Positions 44,186 through 64,000 of a DNA stretch of 64,000 nt are shown piece after piece. Below the pieces are notes generated by a model. That model had not been told where the DNA came from and did no database searches. It worked only from the letters and a program-made list of their open reading frames with translations. The DNA lies in the NCBI GenBank assembly GCA_963769935.1, contig CAVYNY010000003.1:1-64000 (forward strand). The letters are read 5' to 3'. The translations under genes were made by a program, and so were the position numbers. Source of the DNA: an uncultured delta proteobacterium (GTDB taxonomy: Bacteria; Desulfobacterota; Desulfobacteria; Desulfobacterales; JAFDCJ01). Position 1 is the stretch's first letter; each line of letters opens with the position of its first letter.

Positions 44186-44320
44186 GGGATGACAGATGAC
44201 AGAGAGCAGAAGGCGAAGTGACAAAAGGAAATCTCGATTACAAATAACTGGACACATCAGCAGGCAGCTACACCCGAAACCTGAAACCTTTTAAACGAAC
44301 TTAACGATTCAAACGAAGAA

Positions 44321-45229
44321 ATGAGAAATACACCCGTCGATATCTCAGGCGTGAGACACCTTTACCCGTTTGATGCCCATTACCTGGATATCAACGGCCT
44401 CAAGTATCATTATGTTGATGAAGGCCGCGGTGATCCGATCGTGATGGTCCATGGCAATCCGACCTGGTCTTTTTACTTTCGGGAGCTGATAAAAGCCCTG
44501 AGCAGCCACGGCCGCACCATTGTGCCGGATCACATCGGCTGCGGCCTGTCGGCCAAGCCCGACACCAGTTCCTATGGTTTTGGACTTAAAAACCGGGTCG
44601 ATGACCTGGACCGTCTTTTAGATCAGCTGGGTGTAAGAAAGGACATCACCCTCATCCTGCATGACTGGGGAGGCATGATCGGAATGGCCTATGCCGTCAA
44701 GCATCCCGAACGGGTTCGCCGACTGGTCGTCATGAATACCTATGCCTTTCTGCCGCCCGTTGAGTATCGTATTCCATGGGCGACCTATTTTATCCGACAT
44801 GCCGGCCCGCTGGCCTCTCTGGCAGTTTTGGGCTTGAATCTTTTCACCGTCGCGGCGCTGCACCTGAACTCCAGGCAAGGGTTGGCCCGCGATGTCAAAA
44901 ACGGCCTGACCGCCCCTTATAATTGCTGGAACCATCGCATCGCCGTACTGCGATTCGTGCAGGACATCCCGCTGAACCGCAAAGATCCGAGTTATCAATT
45001 AGCTAAAAGTGTTGACGACAATCTGAAGCTATTTTCGGATACGCCGATTCTTGTCTGCTGGGGCGAGCACGATTTTGTCTTTAATCATCAATTTTTAAAG
45101 GAATGGCAAAACCGTTTTCCCCAAGCCCGGGTTTATCGCTTTTCGGATGCGGGTCACTATGTACTGGAGGATGTGCCGGAAAAAATTGTACCTCTAGTCC
45201 GGGATTTCTTGCAAAAACATCCGCTGTAA
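44321..45229 (+). CDS. oleB: OleB beta-lactone decarboxylase (haloalkane dehalogenase-like)
   Basis: Motifs HGNPTWSFY, LHDWGG and AGHYVLED; position in the ole operon. Confidence 0.88.
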   Translation: MRNTPVDISGVRHLYPFDAHYLDINGLKYHYVDEGRGDPIVMVHGNPTWSFYFRELIKALSSHGRTIVPDHIGCGLSAKPDTSSYGFGLKNRVDDLDRLLDQLGVRKDITLILHDWGGMIGMAYAVKHPERVRRLVVMNTYAFLPPVEYRIPWATYFIRHAGPLASLAVLGLNLFTVAALHLNSRQGLARDVKNGLTAPYNCWNHRIAVLRFVQDIPLNRKDPSYQLAKSVDDNLKLFSDTPILVCWGEHDFVFNHQFLKEWQNRFPQARVYRFSDAGHYVLEDVPEKIVPLVRDFLQKHPL

Positions 45230-45249
45230 ATTAAGGTCCAAGAATTAAT

Positions 45250-46923: not shown

Positions 46924-47957
46924 ATGCAACACCATTAAATAACCACCAATCGGAAAGCGTCCTGGTTACCGGCGGCGGCGGGTTTTTGGGCGGTGCCATT
47001 GTCAGGCGTCTGGTAGACCGAGGCGATCAGGTCAGGAGTCTGGCGCGAAATCTGCATCCTGCGCTTGAGGCCATGGCGGTTGAACAGATTCAGGGCAATA
47101 TTGCCGATCCGGCAACGGTTGACAACGCCTGCCGGGGCGCCGAGGTCGTTTTTCATGTTGCGGCCAAGCCTCCTCCCTGGGGAGCATACAACGATTATTA
47201 TCAAACCAATGTTGTCGGCACCCGCAATGTTATCGATGCCTGTCTTCACCGGTCGGTTTCAAGGCTGATCTACACCAGTACTCCCAGTGTGATATTCAAC
47301 GGCGGCCATCTGGAAGGCGTTGACGAATCATTTCCCTATCCTGCCAGATACAAGGCCTATTACCCTGCGACCAAAGCCATGGCAGAACGTCTCGTTGTCA
47401 AAGCCGCCGATCAGGGGCTCAACACCATCGTCCTGAGACCCCATGAAATTTGGGGACCGGGCGACCCCCATTTCGTGCCGCGTCTGCTGGCCCGAGCCGA
47501 CAGGTTGAAACAAATCGGAGACGGCAAAAATCTTGTTGATACAACCTACATCGACAACGCAGCGGATGCGCATATCCTGGCTGCTGATAAATTAAAAGAC
47601 AACCCCCGGTTATCAGGCAAGATTTATTTCATCAGCCAAGACGAGCCGATGCCCGCCTGGGACATGATCAACGCGGTCTTAAAGTCAGCCGGATACGGAC
47701 CGGTCAAAGGCAAAGTGTCGTTCCGGGCGGCCTGGCTCATCGGTGCGGTTCTGGAATTCTTCTATAAAACATTTCGCATTTCCGGTGAACCCCAAATGAC
47801 CCGTTTTCTGGCTGAAGCTGTTGCAACTTCCCACTGGTTTAACATCAATGCCGCCAAAAAAGATCTCGGATATCAGCCGCAGGTGTCTACCCGGCAGGGA
47901 TTGGAAAGACTTGCCGAATGGTTGAAAAAAAATACTTCAAAAGGAGTTTCTGGATGA
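46920..47957 (+). CDS. oleD: OleD 2-alkyl-3-oxoalkanoate reductase (3-beta-HSD-like SDR)
   Basis: Motifs TGGGGFLG, YPATKAMAE and LRPHEIWGPGD. Confidence 0.88.
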   Translation: MNATPLNNHQSESVLVTGGGGFLGGAIVRRLVDRGDQVRSLARNLHPALEAMAVEQIQGNIADPATVDNACRGAEVVFHVAAKPPPWGAYNDYYQTNVVGTRNVIDACLHRSVSRLIYTSTPSVIFNGGHLEGVDESFPYPARYKAYYPATKAMAERLVVKAADQGLNTIVLRPHEIWGPGDPHFVPRLLARADRLKQIGDGKNLVDTTYIDNAADAHILAADKLKDNPRLSGKIYFISQDEPMPAWDMINAVLKSAGYGPVKGKVSFRAAWLIGAVLEFFYKTFRISGEPQMTRFLAEAVATSHWFNINAAKKDLGYQPQVSTRQGLERLAEWLKKNTSKGVSG

Positions 47958-48955: not shown

Positions 48956-49606
48956 ATGTACAAACGTGATTTCCAAGCTCCTGAAATGGCTCCATCAGAT
49001 AAAACCACCACGACCTCTGAAACCTCCGACCAGCTGTTCTTGCTTGTTGAACAGGCTAAGGCAGGGAACCGCTCGGCCTTCGCCCAGCTGGCCGACCGAT
49101 TTCATGAAGATATTTATCGCATGGTTTACTACCGCATCAGATCCCGTCCCGATGCTGAGGATATTACCCAGGATGTGTTTTTAAAGATATTTCAAAAAAT
49201 ATCCGGCATCAAAGAGACGGCCAAGTTTCGCGGTTGGCTTTTTAGCATCACGCTGAACCGAATTCGGGATTTTCAGCGCAAAAAACGATTCCGGTCATTA
49301 TTCAAGGCCGAGGATGAAAGTATAGAGTCGCACGCGCCCGAACAAAGCGACCAAGATCAGCCTGATGCGCTGGACCATGTTTTAAAAAAGGATTTTTGGC
49401 GACAAATCGGTTTGATCCTGAACAAACTGTCAAAAATGGAAAAAGAAGTCTTTTTGCTGAGGTTTTTTGATCATCTCAGTTTAACTGAAATCGCGGGCGT
49501 CTTAAAAAAAAACGAAAGCACGGTCAAAACCCATCTGTATCGCGCGCTCGCCAAATTTAAAAGTGAACCCGCAATGCGACGCCTTCTCAATGAGGTTAAC
49601 AAGTGA
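48956..49606 (+). CDS. ECF RNA polymerase sigma factor (1)
   Basis: Region 2 DAEDITQDVFLK/FRGWLFSITLN and region 4 EIAGVL..ESTVKTHLYRAL. Confidence 0.92.
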   Translation: MYKRDFQAPEMAPSDKTTTTSETSDQLFLLVEQAKAGNRSAFAQLADRFHEDIYRMVYYRIRSRPDAEDITQDVFLKIFQKISGIKETAKFRGWLFSITLNRIRDFQRKKRFRSLFKAEDESIESHAPEQSDQDQPDALDHVLKKDFWRQIGLILNKLSKMEKEVFLLRFFDHLSLTEIAGVLKKNESTVKTHLYRALAKFKSEPAMRRLLNEVNK

Positions 49607-50157
49607 ACTCAAATGACAACCACCATTTGGACGAGAATCAATTTATTAAAGCGGTAGTGGATGCATCCGACCTGCCGGAGGCCGTGCAGGCGCATTTGTT
49701 CACCTGCACTCAATGCCGGAACAGAAGGCAAAACTTTGAGCGGGAATTGACCAGTTTAGGCCAAATTGCCGGGCTGTCGGTACCGAAACCGCAAAGACGG
49801 ATCATTTTGCCGGCGCAAAAGTCCACAATCAGATTCTCAAGTTTCTTGGATTGGCGCAGCGTTATTGTGGCAGCGGCGACGGTTGCCGCTGTATTTATGG
49901 TTGTGTGGGGCACCAACATGGCACGCAATTTTTCCGAGCACCGAACCGAAAACCTGACAGCGGAAATACGGGATGCCAATCGACCCATGAGCGAAGTCAA
50001 CTCGCTTGTTGAAAATGCGCTGCCCCCATTTTATTTAGAAATCGCAGATGAACCAAAACCAGATTACGATGAAGAGTTTTATCAATTTTTGATTCCGCCT
50101 GTTGAAGATAAAACCGTAACCTCTGAGCAAGGGAATCGAGGAACTTCATTATGCTAA
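49603..50157 (+). CDS. Zinc-binding (HxxxCxxC) transmembrane anti-sigma factor (1)
   Basis: HLFTCTQC motif and a single TM segment; overlaps the sigma stop codon. Confidence 0.8.
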   Translation: MNSNDNHHLDENQFIKAVVDASDLPEAVQAHLFTCTQCRNRRQNFERELTSLGQIAGLSVPKPQRRIILPAQKSTIRFSSFLDWRSVIVAAATVAAVFMVVWGTNMARNFSEHRTENLTAEIRDANRPMSEVNSLVENALPPFYLEIADEPKPDYDEEFYQFLIPPVEDKTVTSEQGNRGTSLC

Positions 50158-50558
50158 GAAAGATATTCAGTGTCATCTTGCCGGTCATTTTTCTGGTTGC
50201 TCCATTGATTGCCGCGGCTCAGCACGGTCCAAGAGGCAAATGGTGGCATAACCCCCAGATTCAAAAGAATTTGAATTTGAACGAAAATGAAATCGGCAAA
50301 TTGGACCAGCTTTTTGCCAACATCCGCCCCAACCTGATCAAGCTTAAAACGGATGTCGAGCGCGAGCAATTTGAACTGGATCAACTCCTGAGCAAAAAAA
50401 AGGTCGACGATGCTGATGTTAAAAAGCAGTTCCAAAAACTGGAGCAAGCCCGTAAAAATCTTTCCAACGCACGCCTTGACTTTGTGATCGGCGTTCGCAA
50501 CATACTCGGTGCCGATCGCTTCCAGCAGCTCAAGTCCAACTTTCAGAAGTGGCAGTAG
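50151..50558 (+). CDS. Spy/CpxP-like periplasmic protein
   Basis: Signal peptide, GKWW, LNLNENE, helical composition and IL.ADRFQQL. Confidence 0.75.
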   Translation: MLRKIFSVILPVIFLVAPLIAAAQHGPRGKWWHNPQIQKNLNLNENEIGKLDQLFANIRPNLIKLKTDVEREQFELDQLLSKKKVDDADVKKQFQKLEQARKNLSNARLDFVIGVRNILGADRFQQLKSNFQKWQ

Positions 50559-50616: not shown

Positions 50617-51366
50617 ATGGATCCGGCAGCAATTCTCGCTTCACGCGACATCCTGCAAAAAATAGAAACCGTTTGCAGTCGACAGTTCTCTGCTGAAAAC
50701 GACCGGGATGAGTGTTACATCTTCGTGCTTGACAGCCTCAAGGCCGACGATTTTAAGCGGCTGCGGGCCTTTAAAGGCAAAAGCAAATTATCCACCTATC
50801 TGTATTCTCTGATCAACTCCCTGGTTATTGATTTCAGACGCAAAAAATACGGCCGCCGGCGTGTCCCGGCCGCCGTGTTAAAACTCGGCAAGTGGGCTGA
50901 GGCAGTCTACCGGCTGGTGTGCTGGCAAAAGTTTTCCTTTGATGACGCCTATGATTTTCTGCGGGTTGACGGCCTGTATGACGGCAACTATGATCAGTTC
51001 ATACAGGAGATCGAGGCGATCCGGAATGCACCCTGCCGGGAAAATCCGACTTTTAAATCGATCGATGAACCAGACAGAAATTCGGTCCAGCATATGGAAG
51101 CTTCAGGCGCCGATCCGCTGGAGGACCTGATACAAGCGCTTGACAGGGAAAAAAGAATCACAGCCCTCAGGGTTATTCGCGCAACAACGGAGGCACTGCC
51201 GGAGCCCGATCAGATTCTGGTCAGGCTGGTGTTCGGCTCGGGGCAGCCGCTAAGTGCGGCTGCCAAAATCATCAACCTTTCTGCATCCGCAGCCCGCAAA
51301 CGGCTGCAGACTCTTTTATTAAAATACAGAGAAAGTTTGCTGGCCATTGGTATCCGCGAGCCGTAA
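50617..51366 (+). CDS. ECF-like sigma factor (2) with long inter-domain insertion
   Basis: Region 2 RLRAFKGKSKLSTYL..LVIDFRRK and region 4 LPEPDQILVRL..LSAAAKII..AARKRL. Confidence 0.75.
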   Translation: MDPAAILASRDILQKIETVCSRQFSAENDRDECYIFVLDSLKADDFKRLRAFKGKSKLSTYLYSLINSLVIDFRRKKYGRRRVPAAVLKLGKWAEAVYRLVCWQKFSFDDAYDFLRVDGLYDGNYDQFIQEIEAIRNAPCRENPTFKSIDEPDRNSVQHMEASGADPLEDLIQALDREKRITALRVIRATTEALPEPDQILVRLVFGSGQPLSAAAKIINLSASAARKRLQTLLLKYRESLLAIGIREP

Positions 51367-51379
51367 AATGTCCGTCTAA
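51352..51379 (+). promoter_or_regulatory. Shared ECF-type promoter motif, copy 1
   Basis: ATCCGC-N11-TGTCCGTCTAA. Confidence 0.6.
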
Positions 51380-51435
51380 TTACTCTGCCTGATTATATTT
51401 TACTAGGTATGTTTAACAATTGAATAGAGGCAAAA

Positions 51436-52023
51436 ATGGGAAAATGGATCAATAAAAGCATGGCGCCAGCCGTTTCAGAGCAATCCGCTAATCATCCGGC
51501 CATCGAAGATATCGCGCGGCTGGCGGAAGGCAGGGTCGAGCAAGCTGAACGGGAACAATTCCTGCGCCATCTCAACCGATGCCAAAGATGCTACGAAATC
51601 CTGCAGGAAACCCTGATAGACATTGCCTCCGCCAGGCCTTTGCCAAAGGTTTCCGGTCCCTGGTGGAAATCCAAAATCTTTTATGCCTTGGCTGCCTCAA
51701 TTTTACTGGTCATTATCATCGGCGGGCGCCTGGTATTTGAACACCGCAATCAACATCCCCGGATCATAACCGCCACACTTGATATGGATCAGGAGTTAAA
51801 GGACATCCTGCTGGAAGGCGACACCCTGCGGTGGGAGAAGGGACCGCGGCTAAGCCGGCTGGTGGCTGCTCTGCACAAAAAAGGTCTGCAATTTAATGAT
51901 CTGAAAGCTGCTATCCTTGCGCAACCCTACTATCAGAAAAAAAGCCTGTTCGGTCCCGGGGAAGTCCTTCATATTCGCATCGAGAATGGCGTGGCCTATC
52001 TGAAGGTTAAAGAAAAAAACTAG
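51436..52023 (+). CDS. zf-HC2-type transmembrane anti-sigma factor (2)
   Basis: HP...HLNRCQRC motif and the YALAASILLV TM segment. Confidence 0.8.
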   Translation: MGKWINKSMAPAVSEQSANHPAIEDIARLAEGRVEQAEREQFLRHLNRCQRCYEILQETLIDIASARPLPKVSGPWWKSKIFYALAASILLVIIIGGRLVFEHRNQHPRIITATLDMDQELKDILLEGDTLRWEKGPRLSRLVAALHKKGLQFNDLKAAILAQPYYQKKSLFGPGEVLHIRIENGVAYLKVKEKN

Positions 52024-52226
52024 CTTTATGCCCTGCAAATATATTTAAGTAGTCGACGGGAATACTCAATTAGAGTTGCAGCTTTGAACATAAAAAATTC
52101 CAAGCCCCAAATAACTGCTTTTTGGAATTTGAAATTTGCGATTTAGACCTACCTTGTCCCCTTCCCTCTATTCTCAATCCCTTTCGAAAAAAGACATCCC
52201 ACTCAAAAAAAAATAATGAATTATTG

Positions 52227-52253
52227 ATCCGCCATTACCATCTGTCCGTCTAA
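52227..52253 (+). promoter_or_regulatory. Shared ECF-type promoter motif, copy 2
   Basis: ATCCGC-N10-TGTCCGTCTAA, 55 bp upstream of the next gene's start codon. Confidence 0.6.
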
Positions 52254-52308
52254 CAAGTTAAAAAGAAATCCTTCACTTTACCAACACAATGTCAAGAGGA
52301 GACCTGTC

Positions 52309-53157
52309 ATGTTAAAAGTGACGTTCAGCAGCTCGGCCCCGAATCCTCCAATTCGAACATGGCGTTGGGTGTTTCTTGGATTGGCCGTTTTTATTTTTAC
52401 TGTCCCGGGATTTCCGGCAGCTGCGAAACAACCCCCTACCATTCAGCTGTTTCCAACCACGGTGGTGGAAAATATCAAGCACACCGGAGAGGCGGCCAAA
52501 GCCATGGAACAGGACCTTCAGAGTGTGATTGACCGCCTGAATCAGCAGGAGGAGCTTTACCTGGCGAGCAAGTGCGAAGGGGCCGCAGCCGAACAGGGCT
52601 GCAATGAAATCGCCGGACAGCTGAGTCAAACCTATCTGGAGATGCTGACCTTGATGGAAACCCGCCTGCCGGGGATGGAGGATTCGGTCCGGGCCACGAA
52701 TACCAGCCTGGAAAGACGGATTCGCACGGAGTTGGGCCGCAAAACAACTCCCCGTGGTCTGCAAAAACTTGTAGATGGAACGCCGCAGCAATCAACTGAG
52801 TCTCCCCGCTACAAGCGAAGGGCGGGAAGACTGAGCGAAAAGTTCAGACAGTATTACAAACTGGTAGCCATGGCCCCCGGATCGGGCGCGGGTGGATCAC
52901 TGGCGGCAGTCGCCGCTGAAATTTACCTTGATACCCAGGAAGTGCAGGAACTTATTGCCCTCACCCGCGATGAAATCAGCCGCGCCAAACTCATGATTGA
53001 TCTCGATCAGGCATACGGCATCATCACGCCGGAAATGTTTGAGATGGTCGGCCGGGTGAAAACGATTATATTTGGCGAGACCGGAGAAGCGGAAGGCATA
53101 CCCAGTCCGCCGGCCGGCAGCGCTAAAGCAGAATATCGCAGCCCCCTTGAGATGTAA
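52309..53157 (+). CDS. Exported helical/coiled-coil hypothetical protein
   Basis: Signal peptide ending AAA, a paired Cys motif, helical composition; GAGGAG RBS. Confidence 0.8.
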   Translation: MLKVTFSSSAPNPPIRTWRWVFLGLAVFIFTVPGFPAAAKQPPTIQLFPTTVVENIKHTGEAAKAMEQDLQSVIDRLNQQEELYLASKCEGAAAEQGCNEIAGQLSQTYLEMLTLMETRLPGMEDSVRATNTSLERRIRTELGRKTTPRGLQKLVDGTPQQSTESPRYKRRAGRLSEKFRQYYKLVAMAPGSGAGGSLAAVAAEIYLDTQEVQELIALTRDEISRAKLMIDLDQAYGIITPEMFEMVGRVKTIIFGETGEAEGIPSPPAGSAKAEYRSPLEM

Positions 53158-53194
53158 CTATGGAGGCGTTCGCCTATAACCGGAGGGTGTTATT

Positions 53195-53767
53195 ATGATT
53201 AAGCTACAAAGTAAAATGAATGCCTGGCGTTTCGACCAAATTTTTCTGATGTTGATAGTCCTCGCACTTTTTCCGGCGGCCTGCGGGAACCGGCAATATG
53301 TTAAACCCGGCTGCACGCTGCCTTCCGGCGTAAATCTTGAAGAAGCGTTGGCGCACTCAAGAGAAGATCTTGGGCACCTGGAGTGCGAAACCATGTTTGA
53401 CGGTTACTATATTAGACTCATTGAAGTCGCCAAACGCGACCCCGCAATACAAAACAAGCGCAAGTTCAGCGATTTTTTGGAATGGGCCAATGGGGAAGGC
53501 ATTATCGATAAGATCCAGGCTCGCGACTACTATAATCGCTACTTCAATACCACCTTCATGTCTCTGCCGGACGATTTTAATGTTTGCTCATCCTGCGCCG
53601 AGAAAACCCAAAAAGATCTCGAATCCCAGCTGGAAGAAGAACTCGGCCAGAAAGAAGAAGGGCTGTTGAGAGCGTGCCAGGATAAAAACGCCTATTACCT
53701 TGCGGCTGATCAATATAACTCCATCATGCTGCTGCTGGACGCCACCTGCACTGCCTGTCGGAACTGA
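53195..53767 (+). CDS. Cys-rich helical lipoprotein
   Basis: PAAC lipobox and multiple further Cys residues; GGAGG RBS. Confidence 0.8.
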   Translation: MIKLQSKMNAWRFDQIFLMLIVLALFPAACGNRQYVKPGCTLPSGVNLEEALAHSREDLGHLECETMFDGYYIRLIEVAKRDPAIQNKRKFSDFLEWANGEGIIDKIQARDYYNRYFNTTFMSLPDDFNVCSSCAEKTQKDLESQLEEELGQKEEGLLRACQDKNAYYLAADQYNSIMLLLDATCTACRN

Positions 53768-53947
53768 TATGACAAGCGAATGTCAGATAATGCTGAGCAT
53801 CAGGACTGAATAACACGGACTGAGCAACGAGGACTGAGGACAGAGATGGAAAAAATTCGAGCGATGCAAACAGCGATACGTTCAGTCCTCAGCCCTCAGC
53901 CCTCATCACTTTTTCGAGCAGAAACTAAATTTTAGGGAATTCATACG

Positions 53948-54661
53948 ATGGAAAACAGATCTCATTCCGTCACGGTCTTTTCAGCCGGCTTTATCACCGG
54001 CGCCCTGGGAGTGCTGGTTATCGGCGCTGCGATGCTTTACATGTTGAACATGTCTGAATTTGTTGCCATATCCGTGTTGAAAATTCCCAGGGTTCAAAGG
54101 GTGCTGACGTGGACCTATGAGAATCTCAGACTCTCGATCATCCCCTTTTTCTTTACTTCGCTGCTGTATACCGGCTCTCTTCTCCGCTTAAAGCGTTATC
54201 TGAAAGATCAGCGCACTCCGGTGGAAAAGATTGCCCAGAGCGAGCAGCTGGTTGATATCTGGATCAATCTATTCTTCGGGATCGGGGTAATTTGGACGGC
54301 CATCGGCATGCGCGGCGCCTTGCTGGACGGAGTCGGTGACTTGAATGCCCAATCGGCAGCACAGCTGGGCGCCTTTTCGATCCTGCAACGATTGGTGGAC
54401 GGCGGAATTTTGCTGGCATTATCCACCACCATCTTCGGTGCCGTCGGCGGCTATCTGCTGCGCCTGATTAAATCCATGGCGGTGGGTACCCAGGTGAAAG
54501 CTTATTACAATCGACTGGCAGAGCAGCAGGCCGACTCAGTTCATAAAGCCCTGCAATCCATCGACGGGCGGGTCCAGGAATTGGTGGGGATACAGAAAAA
54601 TTTAAATAACTTGGCGAACACAACCGATGAAGGTAAAGCTATCCGTCCGCCGGTTATTTAA
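53948..54661 (+). CDS. MotA/TolQ/ExbB-like proton-channel membrane protein
   Basis: Four hydrophobic segments. FFGIGVIWTAIGM and GGILLALSTTIFG parallel the family motifs GLLGTVxG and GIxxALxTTxxG. Confidence 0.7.
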   Translation: MENRSHSVTVFSAGFITGALGVLVIGAAMLYMLNMSEFVAISVLKIPRVQRVLTWTYENLRLSIIPFFFTSLLYTGSLLRLKRYLKDQRTPVEKIAQSEQLVDIWINLFFGIGVIWTAIGMRGALLDGVGDLNAQSAAQLGAFSILQRLVDGGILLALSTTIFGAVGGYLLRLIKSMAVGTQVKAYYNRLAEQQADSVHKALQSIDGRVQELVGIQKNLNNLANTTDEGKAIRPPVI

Positions 54662-54790
54662 AGAAATGCAGGCATCAGGTGTTGAGAAAAAGCAAAAATA
54701 TCAGAAAGGTTTCAATCCCTGCACACCGCAACGGACAATGGACAAACGACAGCGGACTTTGAATAATTGGCGCTCAATTTGGAGCAATCG

Positions 54791-55627
54791 ATGCACCCTT
54801 TATATCCATCGCCAATATCTCTTATCCGGCCCGAGGCTTCCTTTTCAAATGAGGTGGAAGTGCTGCAGACGGATGTCATGCGATTTTTTGCGATATTATG
54901 TCTGTGCCTGATGGCGATATTTGCTCTGGTCAAAACCCTGCCCATGGCCCCTTCGACCGGTCCTCCCACGATGGTCGAACCCACGGACCTTAAAGCAGAT
55001 GTCGAAGCTCTGCAAAAACACATTGCCATGCTCAAAGAGAGGCTTGGGCAGTTAAGGACCCAAGTTCAGGCCGCCGCCGTCGACGCCGAAAAATCAACGA
55101 CCGTGGCTGCCGTTGCGGAAAAAAAAATTAAAGATGAAACGCAACACCTGGCAGAGATACAGGCAAAACTGAAGCGGGAAAGAGTAAAATTGAATCAACC
55201 TCGGTCGGAGAAAAAACCGGCTGAAATATTACCGGCTGAGCAAAAAAATCCGCCGCCTCAGACCGTCAGGCAAGGATTCAGCTTGCGTTTTGCCTCGGAT
55301 GCGGCGCTGCAAAAGCTGATCGACAGCGGGAAAGTAAATTTTTATGCATTAGCCGGGAAAAAAGCCTGGCAATTGCACCTGAGAGACGGACAGCCGGTCT
55401 ATTCGTCGACCCGATTTCCCAGTCAAATTCATGAAATGCAGACTCCCACCGTTCCCACTGAGTATACCGGGGCTTTTCACCGGCAGGTAGCGGCGTTCGG
55501 CCGCACCACGGTGACCTGGGGGGTGACGCTGCCTTCCCCAACTATGTCATCCATTAACCAGCTCATCAAAAGCCGACCCGGGGGTGATCTGATCATCACC
55601 GCGGCCGGCGAGGTCGTTATAAAATGA
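54791..55627 (+). CDS. Single-TM partner with coiled coil (MotB/ExbD/TolR-like position)
   Basis: LQTDVMRFFAILCLCLMAIFALV places an Asp at the TM start, followed by a coiled coil and a globular domain. GGAG RBS before the ATG at 54791. Confidence 0.6.
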   Translation: MHPLYPSPISLIRPEASFSNEVEVLQTDVMRFFAILCLCLMAIFALVKTLPMAPSTGPPTMVEPTDLKADVEALQKHIAMLKERLGQLRTQVQAAAVDAEKSTTVAAVAEKKIKDETQHLAEIQAKLKRERVKLNQPRSEKKPAEILPAEQKNPPPQTVRQGFSLRFASDAALQKLIDSGKVNFYALAGKKAWQLHLRDGQPVYSSTRFPSQIHEMQTPTVPTEYTGAFHRQVAAFGRTTVTWGVTLPSPTMSSINQLIKSRPGGDLIITAAGEVVIK

Positions 55628-57222
55628 CAACCACCAACAACATCGGGACCGGGATCCGGCCGTACATTTTACTCTTGATTTTTATAGGGTTGTCGGCCTG
55701 CAGCGGCCATCAGGTGTACCATGAAGTTGGACTGCCGGCCGGCGGATCGTCGCTTGATACCTGGCTGGAAGATACCCTTATTCCATACCTGCTCCAGCAA
55801 CTCAGCCAGCACCCGCGCTTTAAAGGCCAACCCATTTTGTTGGTCGGCCTGCGCGGCGATGAGGTCCGCTCCCGCGCAGATGACTTGACGGGAGAGATCC
55901 GATCAAAAATCGGCGACGCGCTGCTGAAACAACCCGGTCTCGATCTTGCCTGGCAACCGACCGGCCCGCCACGAGAACACCATCAACGTCTCGCGGATGT
56001 CTCCTGTGGCACTTACCGCAAAATCCAATATTACATCGGTCTGGACTGCGGTTTGACCCGATTGGAGGGCAAGCTTTATGTAAAAGTGCGGGCCTTGAAC
56101 CTTGCCGAACAAAAATGGGTGACCGGCTTCGGCAAATCATGGGAAGGGCGGCCGACCGCAGCCCAGCTGGCGGCTCTGGCGCGCGAACATCCGGATGAAT
56201 ATTTGCGGGGTCGGCGCCAGCTGCCGTTTTCCGAGGAGCAGCCGGATTTGTTGGCTGCCTATTTGGCCCGCAATCTAAGCTGTGTTTTGCGGCAGGCCGA
56301 ATCCGATAATCTGGTGGTGCATGTTGCCAAACCATCCGCAAATTCCCCGGCAGTCTTTAAAACGGCCCTGGAACTTGTGGGAAACTACCTGGCGCGTTTT
56401 CGGGAGGTGGAAGTAACCGATGATCCGAACCAGGCCAATATCACCCTGGTATGCGAAATCCATGCCATCCATCAAGGCTTGCACCAGATCTGGGTCTCTG
56501 CCAGACACCGCCGTGATGAAAAATATCTGCCCGGCGCAGAGACTGAAGCGTATGTGTTGATTGATGCCCATGAACAGATGCAGGTCGCCGGCGCGCAGAA
56601 TGCAAGACCTTATGCGCCCCTGCCCTCCGCCGCGCGCCTATCGAATTCATCTGAACTAATAGCATCATTTGATCTACTGACGCCGATGAATCAGAATTCA
56701 TGTTCAACCGGCGCTCCCTGGCAGTCTGGTGTACGGCGGATTGACTCCCAGGAACGTATTCCGGGCGGCGGCTGTCTGGCCGTAGAAATGACGCTTTCGG
56801 CGGCGGCTTATGTTTTTTTGGTGGGTCAGGATGCCGGTGGTGAATTAACGCAAATGTTTCCATCTGTCTGCACCGGCCGGCAGGAAAATGATGCCCTGCT
56901 CCATCCCGGTCAGCTATTTCAATTTCCATCACTTTCAGATCCCAACGCCGGGGTACTGGAACTTACCGGTTCGCCCGGCAGGGAACGGGTTTTTGCAATT
57001 GCCATAACAAGCCCGGATCTGGCCGATCGATTTGCCGACCGGCTGGTGGAAGTCCAGGACCTGTGCCGACCCGGCAAAATATTTGCCGATAACCTAATAG
57101 CCGGTAATAGCCGAACCTCTGCCGAAGGTATTTATCAATGGCAAGACTACTTGATCCGGCTTTCGGCTGATAATCCCGGTTTGGTCCAGTGGCAGGCAAT
57201 CAGCTTCTGGCACGAGCCGTAG
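55624..57222 (+). CDS. Lipoprotein with C-terminal DUF4384-like domain
   Basis: LSAC lipobox and the pattern AAYVFLVGQDAGGELTQMFP...PGRERVFAIA. Confidence 0.7.
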   Translation: MTTTNNIGTGIRPYILLLIFIGLSACSGHQVYHEVGLPAGGSSLDTWLEDTLIPYLLQQLSQHPRFKGQPILLVGLRGDEVRSRADDLTGEIRSKIGDALLKQPGLDLAWQPTGPPREHHQRLADVSCGTYRKIQYYIGLDCGLTRLEGKLYVKVRALNLAEQKWVTGFGKSWEGRPTAAQLAALAREHPDEYLRGRRQLPFSEEQPDLLAAYLARNLSCVLRQAESDNLVVHVAKPSANSPAVFKTALELVGNYLARFREVEVTDDPNQANITLVCEIHAIHQGLHQIWVSARHRRDEKYLPGAETEAYVLIDAHEQMQVAGAQNARPYAPLPSAARLSNSSELIASFDLLTPMNQNSCSTGAPWQSGVRRIDSQERIPGGGCLAVEMTLSAAAYVFLVGQDAGGELTQMFPSVCTGRQENDALLHPGQLFQFPSLSDPNAGVLELTGSPGRERVFAIAITSPDLADRFADRLVEVQDLCRPGKIFADNLIAGNSRTSAEGIYQWQDYLIRLSADNPGLVQWQAISFWHEP

Positions 57223-57384
57223 AGAAAGGACACTAATTGTATTTGAATTGAAAATACTCTGCTGCCGATGTCGGAAGGATCCATTTTGACCAAATGGCGC
57301 AAGGCAGACGGCGCAGGGTATTTGTGCTCGTCTTAATATGATGCCATTAGCTCGGGTAACAGGTAGTCCATGAGGTGCAGTTCA

Positions 57385-57465
57385 CAACCGGTAACCCGAG
57401 ACACGCACCTCGTAAGCCGAAACACGTAACTCGCAACCCGTAACTCGCAACCCGTAACTCGCAAC
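57385..57465 (+). repeat. Heptamer-based tandem repeat
   Basis: (CGTAACTCGCAACC)x3, the last copy ending ..AAC, plus degenerate copies; ends at the SLT start codon. Confidence 0.8.
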
Positions 57466-58289
57466 ATGACTCAACTGCACATTATCACTAAACTAATTAT
57501 CTGCCTGGCCTTGCTTGGATATGGTCAACAGGCGGCAGGCGCCCTTAAAGAAGCCGGATCGGATATTGAGGCGCTGTGGCGCCTTTTTCTGGCCAACGAT
57601 GCGCTGAAATCCCCTGTGATCAGTTTCCCTTATGATCACTGTTTTAATACGGCCGCCCAAAAATATGATCTACCTTTATCACTTCTTCTGGCCGTGGCGC
57701 GCGGTGAATCCGACTTTAATCCCAGAGCCCGGTCGGATCGCAACTGCCACGGATTGATGCAAATCCAGTGGCCCGGAACAGCCAAACATCTGGGAATCTA
57801 TCGACTTGCGGCGCTGTATGAGCCGTGCACCAATATTAGCGCCGGAGCCCGATATCTGAGGGAGCTTATGGACCGCTATGATCAAAATCTGCATCTGGCC
57901 CTGGCGGCATACAACTACGGGCCGAATCGCATCCAGCCCAAAGCCGGACCGGGCCGTATTCCTCAGGGCGCCCAATGGTACAGCGGCTATATTTACCATC
58001 ACCTGGAATTTGTCACCCAGGGGGGGACGCCGCATCCGGCGGCGCAGCGGGCAAAGGGTCGGCCTACGGCCGTGAAAAGCGGCTGGCAATCATAACGTTT
58101 AACCGGCCATATCGAGCGAGCGCATTTTACCGGCACCTTCAAGAACAGGCACCTGCGCTGAAACTCGATTGGTATCGTATCGGTTTGGGAAGGTTTCAGG
58201 TGGTGATGCGGTTCACGGATAAAAAAGCACTGGAAGCCGGCCGCAAAAAATTAAGAACTCTGGGAGTGATCGTCAAAGCCAGGAAATGA
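57466..58289 (+). CDS. Exported lytic transglycosylase (SLT) with SPOR-like C-terminus; frameshift at the G7 tract 58020-58026
   Basis: Motifs AVARGESDFNP, GLMQI and AAYNYGP. The C-terminal domain (IITFNRPYRA...GRFQVVM) lies in the shifted frame. Confidence 0.8.
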
Positions 58290-58388
58290 GATGGAATGCC
58301 GGACCAATGATGTTGAAAAAATCAGCTAAATTATTTTGTAAACCTTTTTTTAACCTTATACGTCACACTCAATAGAAATTTTTTGTTA

Positions 58389-58617
58389 TATAGTTTCATA
58401 TGAGCGCCGCGGCTCTGAGAGCGTCATCTGATAGTGGAAGAAATTCGATGTAGTTTTATAAGTGCCCTCACCGCTGAGAGTCACAGAGAGCGCAGAGATT
58501 ACATTAAAATTTTCTTTCGTCGGCGTTCTCGGCAGGCTCTGCGGTGAACTATCAGTTTCTTTTTCGATCAGATCGGCCGTTGTTTTGACAATGCGGCTTT
58601 GGCGCTGAAACCTGACA
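58389..58617. repeat. Composite dispersed repeat / MITE-like element, copy B
   Basis: TCACCGCTGAG...CTCTGCGGTGA at 58468-58547. AGTTTCATATGAGCGCCG is the reverse complement of 21774-21791. Confidence 0.75.
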
Positions 58618-58733
58618 TCTGTTAACCTAATTTTTGCAATTTTAAATTATCAACGTTCTCAACTTCTCCCGAATAGAGTCTTGGAAAATGCAAGGGGCAA
58701 AATACCTAAAAAGCAAAAATTAGCGGAGTTCTT

Positions 58734-60158
58734 ATGGCTGACAAAAATAAAAAGCTCGGCGGTTTTTGGTCCTATCTTCTCTGGCTGCTGCTGATGTCAT
58801 TGGTCCTCGTTTCAACCTCCAGGGGTGAAGATCGGGCCCTGCTGATCGGTGTCGGACGGTATGCGCATTTCGAAGAAAAGCTCAACGGCGTCAGTCTGGA
58901 TCTCGGCATGATGAAAGAATTATCACAACTGATGGGATTTAAGGAACATGCAATTAAGGTGCTGGAAAATGAGCAGGCATCTACCGCCGGGGTTAATGAG
59001 GCGATTGAAGACTGGTTGATTCGGGGCACCGGACCGCAGGACCGGGTCCTGTTTTATTTCAGCGGGCACGGCTCCCAGGTTCCGGATGAAAACAACGATG
59101 AAAAGGATCATTTTGATGAAGTGCTGCTGCTCTATGATGTGACCCTCACGGAAAGGCAAGGCCGGCAGACATTGAACGGTGTTTTGCTCGATGATCAATT
59201 CGGCAGCATGCTGGCAAAAATCAAAAGCCGCAACATTCTGGTCATTCTCGATGCCTGCCACAGCGGCAGCGCAACCAGGAGCATCCGGCTGACCACCCGG
59301 TCTATTCCGATACACAACGCTCAGGTGAAATACTTCTATTATTCGCCGATGCTGGAGGCAGCCGGCGGCAGCGGCCGGTTCGATGTGATGGAGCCGGATG
59401 CTTCACCGGCGGCTGCAGGCCGCTATGTGGCAATTTCGGCCTGCCGCGACGATGAGATGACGCTTGCCACCGCCCAGGGAAGCATATTCACACTCGGGCT
59501 GCGCGAGACCTTGCGTGCGGCGGCCAGGGCCGGAAAAAGCATTTCGCCCGCAGAATTACAGCGCCGGACGACCCGATTCATTCAGGAACAAATAGGATCC
59601 GAAGGGGCTGCATTTCATCCCCAGATTGCCGGCCAAAAATCCCTTCTTGAGCGTCCTTTGGAACTGGTCTCACTTGCCGGAGGAAGCGGCCCGGTGCGTC
59701 AAAATCTGGAAGCATTGATGCATAAAAGCCATGAAACCGTCTGGATCAATTTAAACAAAATCTGTTTTGAACCTGGCGACGTACTTGAAATATCCGTCAG
59801 ATTATCCGAACCGGGGTATTTGAATGTCGTCAGTGTTCGTCCGGATGATCAGGCCACGGTGCTGTTTCCAAACCAATATCACCGACAGAATGCCGTTGAC
59901 CGGGGCGCGTTGACCCTACCCACCCGTCAGATGAACTTTGAATTGGTGGCCGACGGCCCCCCGGGCACCATTCTGATAACGGCCTTTCTGACCCCTTCAC
60001 CGGTGGACGGCTACAAAAACGGCTTCAAGACCCCGGAGGATGTGATGGCGGGTCTCTCACCCGGTACAACGCGCTCCTTGATGCTGCGCCAAAACCAGGA
60101 CTGGCTGGCCGCCGGCAGGGTAGCCGTTGAAATGCGGGAAAAAGGAGGATGCAGGTGA
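58734..60158 (+). CDS. Exported caspase-family (peptidase C14) protease with DUF4384-like C-terminus
   Basis: Signal peptide; RALLIGVG, FSGHG and LDACHSG form an intact dyad; C-terminal EPGYLNVV..TVLFPNQYH. Confidence 0.88.
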   Translation: MADKNKKLGGFWSYLLWLLLMSLVLVSTSRGEDRALLIGVGRYAHFEEKLNGVSLDLGMMKELSQLMGFKEHAIKVLENEQASTAGVNEAIEDWLIRGTGPQDRVLFYFSGHGSQVPDENNDEKDHFDEVLLLYDVTLTERQGRQTLNGVLLDDQFGSMLAKIKSRNILVILDACHSGSATRSIRLTTRSIPIHNAQVKYFYYSPMLEAAGGSGRFDVMEPDASPAAAGRYVAISACRDDEMTLATAQGSIFTLGLRETLRAAARAGKSISPAELQRRTTRFIQEQIGSEGAAFHPQIAGQKSLLERPLELVSLAGGSGPVRQNLEALMHKSHETVWINLNKICFEPGDVLEISVRLSEPGYLNVVSVRPDDQATVLFPNQYHRQNAVDRGALTLPTRQMNFELVADGPPGTILITAFLTPSPVDGYKNGFKTPEDVMAGLSPGTTRSLMLRQNQDWLAAGRVAVEMREKGGCR

Positions 60159-61036
60159 AATATTTTTTCAAGTTTATCGCTGTCTTGTCGCTAATAATTT
60201 TTACCTGTATTCCCGTGGCGACCCGTATTTCAGCTGCTATGGACTGCCGTCTGGGTGCTGATTACTACTACCAGGCCAAATCCGAAGCCGATCCGCAGCA
60301 GGCTATCCTCTGGTTGAAGCGGTCGGCGCAAGTATGCCCCAATTTCAATGCCTGGTATATGCTCGGGATGATATACACCCGCCAAGGAGAAATTGATCCC
60401 GCCATGGCCGCTTTTATGCGGGCCAGGACCCAGGCTGTTTCCTCCAAAACCGAAGCCCTGGCCCTGGCCCGCCAGGGCGAACTGCTGGCCCGCTCCGGTC
60501 AGCTGCCCCGGGCCCAGCAGGCCCTGGAACTGGCTGGACGGTTTTATCCTGCACCTGCGCCGGCTTGGCTGGAGGCATCTCTTAAGAATACCAGAATTAA
60601 ACTGCAGCAGTCGCTGATAACAGCAGCCGATATCAAGTATGTACTTGAATCCGGCACGCAATTAAGCAAAGACGGCCGATTTGCGGTTCGCCCGGCAGTG
60701 AACCTGCCGGTGCACTTTGACTTCGACCGGGCGGATCTGAATTCAGCCGGCAGCCGTCAGGTGATGGAACTGGGTGGTGCCCTTTCCCACGCAACATTGA
60801 AGCAGTGGTCTTTTCTGCTGGTCGGCCATACCGACAAGCGCGGATCCATGGCCTACAATCAGACGCTCTCCGAAAGTCGCGCCTCTTCGGTAAGGATAGA
60901 ATTGGAACACAGCTTTCCTTCGCTCATCGGCAGGCTGCAAGCCATGGGACGCGGCGAGACCGAATTACTGTACGACGGCGACAGCGAAGAAGATCATATG
61001 CTCAATCGCCGCGTGCAGGTGACGCTTTATCATTGA
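60149..61036 (+). CDS. Exported TPR + OmpA-C (peptidoglycan-binding) protein
   Basis: Signal peptide, TPR helices, and motifs VHFDFDRADL, GHTDKRGS..YNQTLSESRA and NRRV. Confidence 0.88.
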   Translation: MQVKYFFKFIAVLSLIIFTCIPVATRISAAMDCRLGADYYYQAKSEADPQQAILWLKRSAQVCPNFNAWYMLGMIYTRQGEIDPAMAAFMRARTQAVSSKTEALALARQGELLARSGQLPRAQQALELAGRFYPAPAPAWLEASLKNTRIKLQQSLITAADIKYVLESGTQLSKDGRFAVRPAVNLPVHFDFDRADLNSAGSRQVMELGGALSHATLKQWSFLLVGHTDKRGSMAYNQTLSESRASSVRIELEHSFPSLIGRLQAMGRGETELLYDGDSEEDHMLNRRVQVTLYH

Positions 61037-61215
61037 AAATTGAAGATTGAAGATTGAAGATTGAAGATTTATGGAGTCGCCTCGCTCCAACTTTCAATTT
61101 AAATATTTTCAAAACCAAATCCGTTTGCAGCAAGATGTTTAATTGATAATGCGATATTTAAAATTTTGGCTAAAATCGATAGGATTCCGCCAATTTTCAA
61201 TCTTCAATTTTCAAT
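61032..61215. repeat. Inverted heptamer-array element (ATTGAAG)n ... (CTTCAAT)n
   Basis: ATTGAAG x4-5 at 61032-61068, with TTTCAAT/CTTCAAT repeats at about 61191-61215. A similar element lies at 20210-20332. Confidence 0.75.
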
Positions 61216-61254
61216 AAATTACATTTCACCCTGATTAGGAATCTGTTTGTACCA

Positions 61255-64000
61255 ATGATTAGAGGACATAAAAAAATAGCGCTGTTGACGATATTGCTCT
61301 GGCTGGCCGGCGGCATTTCCCTGCCTGCCCTTGCTGAAAATCATGCCCTGCTGATCGGTATCGGCAAATACCGGCAGCGCACACTGGAGGGGCCGCCCTA
61401 TGATGTTGCGGCGCTTTCTCGAGTGCTTGCGGCGCAGTATGATTTTCAAAAGGAAAATATCCGTACGCTCGTAAATGAAGAAGCCGTCAAGTCCAGAATC
61501 CTTTCTGAGATCGAGCGTCTGACGCATCACACCCATCCCGGAGACCGGGTATTCATTTATTTCAGCGGTCACGGAACCAGCCGCCGGGATGAAGTGCTGG
61601 CGCTTCCGCTGCCGTACAGCACCGGTGCGCTGGTGCCGGCTGATTTTGAGGCTGATCCCGCTCAACCGGTTGAAAAACTGCTGTCGCAGCTGATCATCGG
61701 CAGACGCGACCTGCGGCCGGCGCTGGAGCGACTTGATCGGGACCGACAGGTCCTGATGGTTTTTGATACCTGTTTTTCAGGCAATACCATCCGAGCCATT
61801 GGAAATCATAAAACCGCAAATTTAAGCCGCTACCTCCCGCTGCCGTCAAGAAGTGTCTTCAAAGCGGAGCGGGAAATTGGAAGCTTTGAGGAAAATTTGA
61901 ATCTGGATGACCCATATCCCTATCAAAATATTTTTTATATTTCGGCGGCTTCGGAAAATGAAGTCGCCAAGGATATCCAAAAAGATACCTTGGACTTATA
62001 TCCGACCATTGACGGCAATCCCCATGGGGTTCTGACGGACGCCCTTTTAAGGGTGCTGGCGGGACAAATGCGCGTCGACACCGACAACGACGGCCGGTGG
62101 AGCCAGATTGAGCTGTATGCGGCTGTCAAAAAAGAGGTTCAACGGCGCTTCCAACAATCGCCGCAGGCCTTGCCCAAGGTAGGGACCCGCACCGATCGGC
62201 TGTATTCGAGAACCTTTTTTGTGCGTTCGGCAAAAGCGGTTGCCACAGCAGGCGGGCACCCGGCCGAACCGGCGCCCGGCCGCCAGGGCGCGAATTATCA
62301 ATCGGGTTATTCTTCTTCCCATGCGCTGGTGGTTGGCATAAACGAATATCGACACTGGCCGCGGCTCGAATATGCCGCCAATGATGCCAGGGCAATGGCC
62401 GCCAGGTTGAAAGCACAGGGCTTTCAGACTTACCTGCTCACCGATGAGCAGGCCACGCTGAAAAATATTCTGGCCGGACTGGAAACGATTCGCCGCAGCA
62501 TTGATGAGAATTCACGGATGATGTTCTATTTTGCCGGGCACGGTCAGACCGAGGACCTGCCTGGAGGACGGGAAAGAGGGTATATCGTGCCGGTGGATGC
62601 GGATGCCTACAACTGGCAGCGTACGATGCTGCCCATGGATCGGTTGAATCAAACTATCAGGCAGTTCAAAGCCAAACATATCCTTATGGCCTTTGACTCC
62701 TGTTACTCCGGACTGGGGTTGACTCGCTCGATAAAAGGTCGTCCCGATCCGGATTCCGCCTACATTCAGAAAATGATGCACTCCCGAAGTATTCAGATAC
62801 TGACAGCGGGCAGCCGTTCCGAGCAGGCCATTGAAGCTGCCGGCCACGGACTGTTCACGGACCAACTGCTGGCCGCCCTCGCGGGGGCGGCGGATATTAA
62901 TTCCGACGGATACATTACGGCGACCGAAATTTATGCCACCCTGCGTCCGGCCATAACCCAGAAGTCCTATAGCCGCCAGACCCCGCAGTTCGGCTATATC
63001 GAGGGCAACGGCGATATTATTTTTCTTAATACTTCCCGCGAACCAGAACCTGCCGCCGTTGTTGTTGATACTGCAATTAGCGGCATCGACGTATGGGCCG
63101 GCACCTCTGAAATCGGTCACCGCCTGCCGGCCGGACGGCATCAGTTACCGGCTCTTGCGGGGCAAACAGCTCTGATCGTTAAAAAGGGCGGACGCACCCT
63201 TTATCGAAAGAATGTGCTGCTGTCCGCCAACAGGGTGTTTTCAATCCAGATCGGCGCAACCATTGCGACATCACACCCGCCGGAAGCATTTTCCACGATT
63301 ACTATTGCCAATCATAGCGTCGACAATTATTCAAATTCGATTGCCTATGATCTGGACGGTGACGGCCGGGAGGAGATGGTGACCGCCTCGGATAACCGGC
63401 TTTTTGCTTTCAGGTCCGACGGCACCATCATCTGGGAAAAAAAATTCCATTTCCCGATCACCTTGGATCTGATTGATGACTGGAATTCGCAGCCGGCCAT
63501 TGGGCTGTCCGCCGTGAATGAGGATACAGTTCACCTGGTGCTGCTTGACCAGCGGGGAGAGCAAATTTGGCAGCATGTCCGAAAACTTACCCGCTATTAC
63601 AACGGCAAAACCGACGGCGGGGGAAAGATTGCCGGGCTGGCGGACGTCGACCGGGACGGCCGCCAGGACGTCGTGGCCTTTGCCACGGCAGAATACACCT
63701 TAAAGCCCCGCGGCATCATCGTGTACGACGGTCGTGCCCGTGAACTGTGGCGCTACACAATCGGACCCGCTCCACAAAGCATCGTTGTCTGGCAAAAAGA
63801 TTCAGGACGACCCGACATCATCATCGGAACGTACAGCCCGGGCGACGGAAATCGCGACTTAACCAACAACACCAGCGATATGCAAACCTACATCATCAGT
63901 GTCGACGGTTTTGGCAAAGCAAACTGGCAGATCCCGGTCGGCGGGTTTTACAGCGGGGTTGTCGTGCTGCCGGCCGGTCTGAAGGACCCTGCCCGTCGCT
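61255..64000 (+). CDS. Exported tandem double-caspase (2x C14) protein with PEGA-like and FG-GAP/beta-propeller repeats (3' partial; absent from ORF track)
   Basis: Manual translation from the ATG at 61255 stays open to the window end (915 codons). It has a signal peptide, FSGHG/FDTCFSG and FAGHG/FDSCYSG dyads, and DLDGDGREE and DVDRDGRQD repeats. Confidence 0.88.
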   Translation, partial: MIRGHKKIALLTILLWLAGGISLPALAENHALLIGIGKYRQRTLEGPPYDVAALSRVLAAQYDFQKENIRTLVNEEAVKSRILSEIERLTHHTHPGDRVFIYFSGHGTSRRDEVLALPLPYSTGALVPADFEADPAQPVEKLLSQLIIGRRDLRPALERLDRDRQVLMVFDTCFSGNTIRAIGNHKTANLSRYLPLPSRSVFKAEREIGSFEENLNLDDPYPYQNIFYISAASENEVAKDIQKDTLDLYPTIDGNPHGVLTDALLRVLAGQMRVDTDNDGRWSQIELYAAVKKEVQRRFQQSPQALPKVGTRTDRLYSRTFFVRSAKAVATAGGHPAEPAPGRQGANYQSGYSSSHALVVGINEYRHWPRLEYAANDARAMAARLKAQGFQTYLLTDEQATLKNILAGLETIRRSIDENSRMMFYFAGHGQTEDLPGGRERGYIVPVDADAYNWQRTMLPMDRLNQTIRQFKAKHILMAFDSCYSGLGLTRSIKGRPDPDSAYIQKMMHSRSIQILTAGSRSEQAIEAAGHGLFTDQLLAALAGAADINSDGYITATEIYATLRPAITQKSYSRQTPQFGYIEGNGDIIFLNTSREPEPAAVVVDTAISGIDVWAGTSEIGHRLPAGRHQLPALAGQTALIVKKGGRTLYRKNVLLSANRVFSIQIGATIATSHPPEAFSTITIANHSVDNYSNSIAYDLDGDGREEMVTASDNRLFAFRSDGTIIWEKKFHFPITLDLIDDWNSQPAIGLSAVNEDTVHLVLLDQRGEQIWQHVRKLTRYYNGKTDGGGKIAGLADVDRDGRQDVVAFATAEYTLKPRGIIVYDGRARELWRYTIGPAPQSIVVWQKDSGRPDIIIGTYSPGDGNRDLTNNTSDMQTYIISVDGFGKANWQIPVGGFYSGVVVLPAGLKDPARR

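Follow-up and report, generated by a model that had tools for sequence, protein, structure and literature searches.

A conserved gene unit that pairs a putative divergent ion motor with an SLT-SPOR transglycosylase in Desulfobacterota and Gammaproteobacteria

The stretch of DNA analysed here (the window) comprises the first 64,000 nucleotides of contig CAVYNY010000003.1 (contig C3), from the 8.0 Mb genome of an uncultured delta proteobacterium (assembly GCA_963769935.1); in protein searches, close relatives of its proteins carry the label Desulfobacterales. From position 50617 onward, eleven co-directional open reading frames (ORFs) lie on the forward strand, with the starts given in an earlier note that had read all eleven as one trans-envelope machine. 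Analysis of related loci shows that the conserved unit is smaller than these eleven genes, consisting of G3, G4, G5 and G6 together with the gene of an SLT lytic transglycosylase that carries a fused SPOR-like domain (G8), and that the caspases, the OmpA-domain protein and the regulatory pair of an extracytoplasmic function (ECF) sigma factor and its anti-sigma factor are additions found in Desulfobacterales. The evidence is the presence of each gene at loci with sufficient flank. Relatives of G5 were confirmed at 344 places among the GTDB species genomes, and loci were counted at the best 80 of these 344 (20 assigned to Desulfobacterota, among them records with the title delta proteobacterium, the other 60 to Gammaproteobacteria); a second sample consists of 80 metagenome loci chosen with a divergent query, with 407 further metagenome matches outside the counts. 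At the GTDB loci G3 is present in 69/69, G4 in 69/69, G6 in 72/72, the lipoprotein gene G7 in 61/64 and the transglycosylase gene in 52/58; at the divergent-query loci the corresponding figures are 19/19, 30/31, 40/40, 18/28 and 21/24, with a caspase gene in 8/17. The accessory genes divide by lineage: a caspase lies near the motor genes in 9/10 Desulfobacterota versus 0/37 gammaproteobacterial loci, an OmpA gene in 9/10 versus 1/37, and the sigma/anti-sigma pair in 11/12 versus 0/39. Because the loci are related to one another and some occur in more than one scan, these counts are not independent trials; co-occurrence of the genes across genomes, the subject of the gene-neighbourhood check, is far above chance.

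Two of the core genes encode exported proteins of no known family. G3 (52309..53157, forward strand, as are all features described below) encodes an all-helical protein with an invariant cysteine pair (C89 and C98) and has neither a Pfam nor a PDB match, and G4 (53195..53767) encodes a cysteine-rich probable lipoprotein with conserved cysteines, for which family scans and PDB comparison likewise give no match. Cys30 of G4 is at least 90% conserved, though the lipobox pattern is not matched there; the pattern does match in G7 and in G12, a twelfth gene described below. As to the claim that every product after the sigma factor is exported or membrane-bound, N-terminal hydrophobic stretches are found in G3, G4, G7, G9, G10, G11 and G12, and none above threshold in the transglycosylase, export having been judged from hydropathy and the lipobox pattern alone.

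The near-core gene G7 (55624..57222; lipobox LSAC) encodes a lipoprotein with one or more LpoB-like domains and DUF4384. Two alpha/beta domains and one beta-sandwich make up its model; Foldseek matches it to LpoB with probability 1.00 (expectation value, E, 1.7e-3; nothing at E<=0.001), and a PDB sequence search with the G7 profile finds nothing meaningful. Secondary structure suggests that the two N-terminal domains are a tandem repeat, and the profile does not (E 0.12). In the divergent clade G7 is substituted by other lipoproteins, including LpoB, FlgT_N, LPP20-like, TPR and glycine-zipper proteins. G8 (57466..58289; SLT E 7e-27) is frameshifted at a run of G in the present assembly, which leaves its SPOR-like tail (57975-58289) in another frame. 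Contigs from three runs (one contig each, depth 3.6-6) have one additional G after 58019, and 8/9 relatives have a single ORF of 263-293 residues spanning SLT domain and tail; the transglycosylase is therefore an SLT-SPOR fusion, split here by a homopolymer assembly error. The tail matches a profile of 26 SPOR domains with HHalign probability 91.9 (E 6.9e-7), where Pfam detects none. A separate gene with a transmembrane (TM) helix, a linker and a SPOR-like domain occurs in 41/58 GTDB loci and is absent from the window.

G5 (53948..54661) is predicted, from fold ranking and motifs, to encode a divergent A subunit of the MotA/TolQ/ExbB/ZorA kind, with a C-terminal helix and almost no cytoplasmic domain. 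Its AlphaFold2 model (pLDDT 90, pTM 0.75) has four long helices, and a loop of 5 residues links helices 47-86 and 92-129 at the place where MotA and ExbB have their cytoplasmic domain. A VIA structure search of 48,161 chains places type I ZorA first (Z 9.4, 148 residues aligned, root-mean-square deviation 5.5), ExbB fourth (Z 8.9) and TolQ ninth (Z 8.0), with three further ZorA chains in the top 21; Foldseek puts TolQ at ranks 1-2 and gives ZorA a probability of 0.85-0.94; HHalign aligns the G5 profile with 18 TolQ/ExbB proteins at E 0.0027 and with 8 MotA proteins at E 0.0013; and ESM-Atlas leads of 0.88 and 0.81 point to MotA/ExbB clusters. In the family alignment two pore-type threonines on the last two TM helices are practically fixed (T117 in 115/115 members, T161 in 114/115), and in the profile alignment they stand opposite the invariant threonines of the TolQ/ExbB set.

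G6 (54791..55627) is the putative B subunit and follows G5 in every locus with sufficient flank, always in A-B order. Its single TM helix carries the motif LQTDVMRF, in which the aspartate, D28, is present in 54/54 ungapped rows; the helix is followed by a coiled-coil stalk and then by a C-terminal domain without a family match. Family scans of G6 yield coiled-coil noise and nothing else. This domain gives no match in profile comparison (6% probability for ExbD) and no usable ESM Atlas match, and a PDB sequence search with the G6 profile returns generic coiled coils only. The available text of PMC12215075 describes a polar threonine ring round the B-subunit aspartate, formed by TolQ T145 and T178 with TolR D23 and by ExbB T148 and T181; by alignment, T117, T161 and D28 appear to correspond to these ring residues. 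G5 and G6 form a single ORF of 533-544 residues at L029:1119-2753 and L077:9977-11578, either a real fusion or an assembly error; such fusions are rare (L029, P0319) and were left aside as evidence. In a divergent G6 at L024:1008-2117 the TM helix and the coiled coil are separated by a fibronectin type III domain.

Several results weigh against a motor assignment. G5 has no MotA_ExbB match in Pfam, NCBIfam or PADLOC and does not reach the PF01618 cut-off, and Pfam MotA_ExbB matches 1/115 members of the G5 family, weakly (E 0.0083). In the structure search unrelated bundles are interleaved with ZorA and ExbB (syntaxin 6 at Z 9.2, a designed protein at Z 9.0), and Z below about 13 is common for helical models; Foldseek gives G5 no match at E<=0.001, all E values being above 0.1; the HHalign probabilities are 11-19%; and PDB sequence searches with the G5 profile find nothing meaningful. 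The G6 TM helix has no significant match to the ExbD and MotB profiles (E 0.014 and 0.12), and an arginine three residues after the aspartate (D+3), present in 145/148 G6 motif matches, is unlike the MotB and ExbD/TolR sequences compared. No single motor test is decisive, each line alone being sub-threshold. The earlier identification of the protein at 53948 as MotA/TolQ/ExbB-like thus lacks a family-model match and keeps its fold ranking and motif evidence. Fold ranking, profile matches and the threonine and aspartate motifs converge on a divergent MotA/ExbB/TolQ/ZorA-type pair, and from these individually weak lines we consider G5 and G6 very probably an ion-motor pair.

The cluster is not a member of a type VI secretion system (T6SS), nor of the flagellar, Tol or Zorya systems. 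With TolQR(A)/Tol-Pal and ExbBD-TonB it shares the A-B gene pair, the TM2/TM3 glycine-threonine motifs, the TM aspartate and, as proposed here, an envelope role; it differs in having no PF01618 or ExbD match, almost no cytoplasmic A domain, a coiled-coil stalk on B and arginine at D+3, and no TolA/TonB transducer, TolB-Pal or TonB-dependent receptor is conserved at the loci examined. Elsewhere, the genome encodes a TolQR-like locus of its own, a pair of MotA-type loci and a single additional PF01618 gene. A divergent PF01618 gene of this genome, without an obvious B gene in the ORF call, lies at L115:1456-2256 (G000:C20). Type I ZorA is the best structural neighbour of G5, and the cluster lacks the long A tail, the OmpA-type domain on B, ZorC/D/E and a PADLOC ZorA match of Zorya; PADLOC matches in the window only the OmpA domain of G10 (as ZorB1) and the caspases. 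Flagellar MotAB shares the weak G5 profile match (E 0.0013) and the TM aspartate; the torque-generating cytoplasmic domain and the OmpA anchor on B are missing here. Dependence on a flagellum was rejected, FliG not being found in 5/24 carriers, one of them 100% complete (genome G364). Membership among T6SS accessory genes continuing past the window was likewise dismissed: VipB was found in 2/5 carriers, the copies of the present genome lie on another contig, C7, and the genes downstream are not T6SS genes. Likeness to GldKLMN of Bacteroidota is one of architecture only, a four-gene unit comprising a lipoprotein, an exported protein and a B subunit with a long periplasmic part. The superfamily that G5 resembles, MotA/ExbB, is one with which GldLM shares no obvious homology according to the available part of PMC9389320. 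No Gld or type IX secretion match appeared in any scan made.

Regulation of the core appears to differ between the lineages. The window has a lineage-specific ECF sigma factor gene (50617..51366; TIGR02937 45.3 bits, cut-off 42.9), not found in 5 distant carriers, followed by a gene for a zinc-type anti-sigma factor with one TM helix (51436..52023; hydrophobic 81-99), whose zinc domain, called earlier, receives a positive but weak zf-HC2 match (E 0.016). In motif scans TGTCCGTCTAA, which is promoter-like and of ECF type, lies ahead of the anti-sigma gene (51369..51379), and the same motif lies ahead of G3 (52243..52253). Allowing at most one mismatch, TGTCCGTCTA lies upstream of the anti-sigma gene in 18/18 loci, against a background of 14/3000 random windows, and before G3 in 24/24 Desulfobacterales-type loci, a group defined by the accessory block (loci with anti-sigma, or with caspase and OmpA); it occurs before G4 and G5 in 0/26 and before other G3 genes in 7/74. 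TGTCCGTCTA presumably resembles an ECF -10 element. The motif at 52243..52253 is likely to be the promoter of the core operon and the adjacent sigma factor is likely to read TGTCCGTCTA promoters. From the conserved motif, ECF control, as first proposed, gains support. Contigs from RNA runs of relatives 90-95% identical span the cluster, which as contigs cannot show transcription. Directly upstream, window positions 48956-50558 hold a second ECF sigma gene, an anti-sigma-like gene and an exported Metal_resist (PF13801) protein, in an order kept in several close relatives, other relatives having an inverted ECF cassette there.

Gammaproteobacterial loci have a different repeat, RTTCAG-N5-RTTCA, before G3 (51/54 loci, versus 19/2871 random windows and 0/16 Desulfobacterales loci) and also before 11/11 glycine-zipper genes that head a response regulator-kinase operon on the opposite strand. 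The repeat fits the P. aeruginosa PhoP consensus GTTCAGNNNNNRTTCAG published in PMC3156716, as given in its available text, and is by sequence a candidate PhoP site; the best NCBIfam matches of the neighbouring regulator and kinase are PhoP and PhoQ. These regulation findings, the ECF-type and the candidate PhoP-box motifs before G3, are new here. PhoPQ envelope responses (SlyB-type) and RlpA-type systems share with the cluster the PhoP-box repeat, phoPQ-like neighbours, glycine-zipper genes and the combination of transglycosylase and SPOR domain; the G8 catalytic domain belongs to the SLT family, a difference, we take it, from RlpA-type transglycosylase-SPOR proteins. We know of no motor in PhoPQ-regulated envelope or RlpA-type systems.

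Carriers of the cluster are sediment dwellers and symbionts, including tubeworm and Olavius symbionts; among the best 80 of the 344 GTDB loci the gammaproteobacterial carriers are Woeseiaceae, Chromatiales, Methylococcales, Motiliproteus and tubeworm symbionts. The G5 family has 234 representatives at 50% identity, and its named members are hypothetical proteins, except for one stray transporter label on a fragment. G5 is present in 13/41 related genomes, in 5/401 genomes sampled from the phylum and, as strong matches, in 4/400 genomes around a gammaproteobacterial centre (centre included in each case; three weak class-level matches in the last set, E 1e-5 to 1e-3, were left out). Each carrier searched has one motor copy, synteny is stable, flanks are conserved within lineages, and plasmid and viral searches found no relatives. 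In a quick G5 tree, which carries long-branch warnings, the window falls among 18 close rows and transfer is not shown. At L196:5935-9536, G3 and two G4-like genes (one of 461 residues) lie on the opposite strand, divergent from G5, G6 and the transglycosylase gene, and at L182-L191, in the divergent clade, an N-terminally anchored protein of 190-270 residues lies between G4 and G5, possibly a counterpart of the TM-linker-SPOR gene.

Taking together the core of five genes with its conserved residues, the fused SLT-SPOR protein and both upstream motifs, we infer a mechanism in which a stress-induced 5:2 ion motor, a G5 pentamer round a G6 dimer, would couple outer-membrane lipoproteins to local wall cutting in envelope repair or remodelling; we give this mechanism an even chance. 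A stress signal would induce the operon through the adjacent ECF/anti-sigma pair in Desulfobacterales or through the PhoPQ-like two-component system in Gammaproteobacteria; ions would pass the G6 aspartate inside the G5 threonine ring, turning G5 relative to G6; and output would probably run through the periplasmic coiled-coil stalk of G6 itself to an assembly of G3, G4 and the lipoprotein G7, because a cytoplasmic domain is nearly absent from G5 and the cluster encodes no TonB/TolA partner. The SLT-SPOR protein would bind denuded glycan and open the wall where the machine works, and glycine-zipper lipoproteins, joined in the lineage of the window by caspases and the TPR-OmpA protein, would be co-regulated stress accessories rather than motor parts. 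A role in stress repair is preferred because two unrelated envelope-sensing regulators precede the same first gene and glycine-zipper genes are nearby in three lineages; two preprints, in their available text, describe SlyB-type glycine-zipper lipoproteins as outer-membrane stress factors. On the other side of the scale, the regulator and kinase pair is present in 11/80 loci, the PhoP and PhoQ scores (227.7/336 and 213.4/497) fall under the curated cut-offs, and PhoP is able to repress through the same box (PMC3156716, available text). The patchy spread noted above (5/401 and 4 strong matches in 400 sampled genomes) also argues against a general housekeeping need.

The balance tips slightly towards yet another class of 5:2 motor, additional to Mot, Exb, Tol, Agl, Gld and Zor. 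In this class G6 would be its own force transducer with an Asp-x-x-Arg pore chemistry and would drive a dedicated lipoprotein ring and a wall-cutting enzyme, in stress-induced envelope repair or export, in bacteria of sediments and in symbionts of tubeworms and Olavius; the machine would have come under the control of an ECF sigma factor and of a PhoPQ-like system independently. Each known family of 5:2 motors serves a major envelope process (swimming, nutrient import, division, gliding/secretion or phage defence). Here the fixed partner set and the readable regulator sites point to a new process that can be tested directly in Woeseiaceae, Desulfobacterales, Chromatiales, Methylococcales and symbionts of animals, and the conserved arginine beside the putative coupling aspartate and the missing cytoplasmic domain bear on ion choice and force delivery in such motors. 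The cluster is a real, widespread and unannotated system, built on a putative motor of a known kind. No description of the G3-G8 gene set was found in a literature search that covered mainly open-access full text, with supplementary tables (e.g. of PMC12505986 and PMC12204202) outside it; the available parts of PMC12505986 and PMC9389320 do not describe the set, nor does that of PMC12204202, where the terms transglycosylase, SPOR, DUF4384 and LpoB do not occur.

Among other explanations, an export or gliding motor of the cell surface survives best. In such a machine G6 would be a rotating shaft driving a ring of G3, G4 and G7, and the SLT-SPOR protein would merely clear space in the wall: the strict four-gene unit (exported protein, lipoprotein, A and B) and a long G6 stalk that lacks an OmpA domain recall the GldM shaft and GldKN ring of the available part of PMC9389320, carriers live in sediment or as symbionts, and divergent loci have lipoproteins of FlgT_N, LPP20 and LpoB type. 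However, the loci have no conserved gene for an adhesin, an outer-membrane barrel or a substrate, FliG is present in 19/24 carriers, control by PhoP-box and ECF motifs suggests a conditional response, and no literature was found linking the carriers to gliding, so that we consider this explanation unlikely. An auxiliary module of division or cell separation, in which a second motor of Tol type would in certain conditions work together with septal SPOR proteins, would make sense of the SLT-SPOR fusion, of the TM-linker-SPOR-like gene and of the LpoB-like G7; the first two of these resemble RlpA and DamX/DedD/FtsN. Such a module is decidedly unlikely: a TolQ-TolR-TolA-like locus lies apart from the cluster in this genome, which also has eight other SPOR matches, the spread is patchy, and no division genes are conserved near the loci.

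Defence, one of the options raised in the earlier note, would take the form of an anti-phage sensor of Zorya type, with damage to the envelope setting the motor turning and switching on exported caspases or other effectors. VIA ranks ZorA first, the highest Foldseek probability is likewise that of ZorA, the family is patchy, and caspase genes are found in the vicinity of four unrelated divergent loci (L022, L024, L191 and L250), so that some affinity of caspases to the motor is possible. Yet G5 has neither a PADLOC ZorA match nor a long ZorA tail, G6 has no OmpA domain, no nuclease or helicase effector is encoded, caspases are missing from all 37 gammaproteobacterial loci, and the single copy per carrier searched, stable synteny, lineage-conserved flanks and negative plasmid and viral searches do not favour defence, which we regard as quite improbable. 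Most improbable is a passive G5/G6 membrane scaffold for a wall-remodelling complex whose likeness to motors is that of a common helical bundle, a view with which the sub-threshold fold and profile scores and an arginine at D+3 that could neutralise the aspartate would agree, but against which stand the near-invariance of both threonines and the aspartate at the expected register, the constant adjacency of G5 and G6 in A-B order, and three methods that place the same superfamily high.

The accessory block of the window begins with G9 (58734..60158), which encodes an exported C14 caspase-DUF4384 protein with intact dyad motifs (YFSGHG/DACHSG), assigned by Pfam, and continues with G10 (60149..61036), for which Pfam identifies TPR and an OmpA-like C-terminal domain, and G11 (61255..64000 in the window), in which family scans find two C14 domains (YFSGHG/DTCFSG and YFAGHG/DSCYSG) and FG-GAP repeats. 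G11 has 1102 residues and ends at contig position 64563, beyond the window; G12, a glycine-zipper lipoprotein gene at 64698-65135, lies 3' of it outside the window and is also present at each of the six relative loci extending to this point. Pfam and NCBIfam bear out the domains originally assigned to the eleven ORFs (ECF sigma, DUF4384, SLT, three Peptidase_C14, TPR with OmpA, and FG-GAP), and all three exported caspase domains retain the His/Cys motifs from which protease activity is predicted. The original gene list overlooked the SPOR domain and the twelfth gene, as well as the PhoP-box motifs of the larger lineage, and its proposal that periplasmic proteolysis is part of the machine is not supported, given the lineage-restricted distribution of the caspases.

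In the intergenic stretches 58480-58590 and 61035-61190 contig depth is very high and loose ends are numerous across all four runs; these stretches are likely to be dispersed repeat elements. Elsewhere in the window, an ORF of 2035 residues occupies 25598-31705, and a row of KAS-III-like, alpha/beta hydrolase, AMP-ligase and NAD-dependent dehydrogenase genes at 43145-47957 presumably resembles an oleABCD olefin operon.

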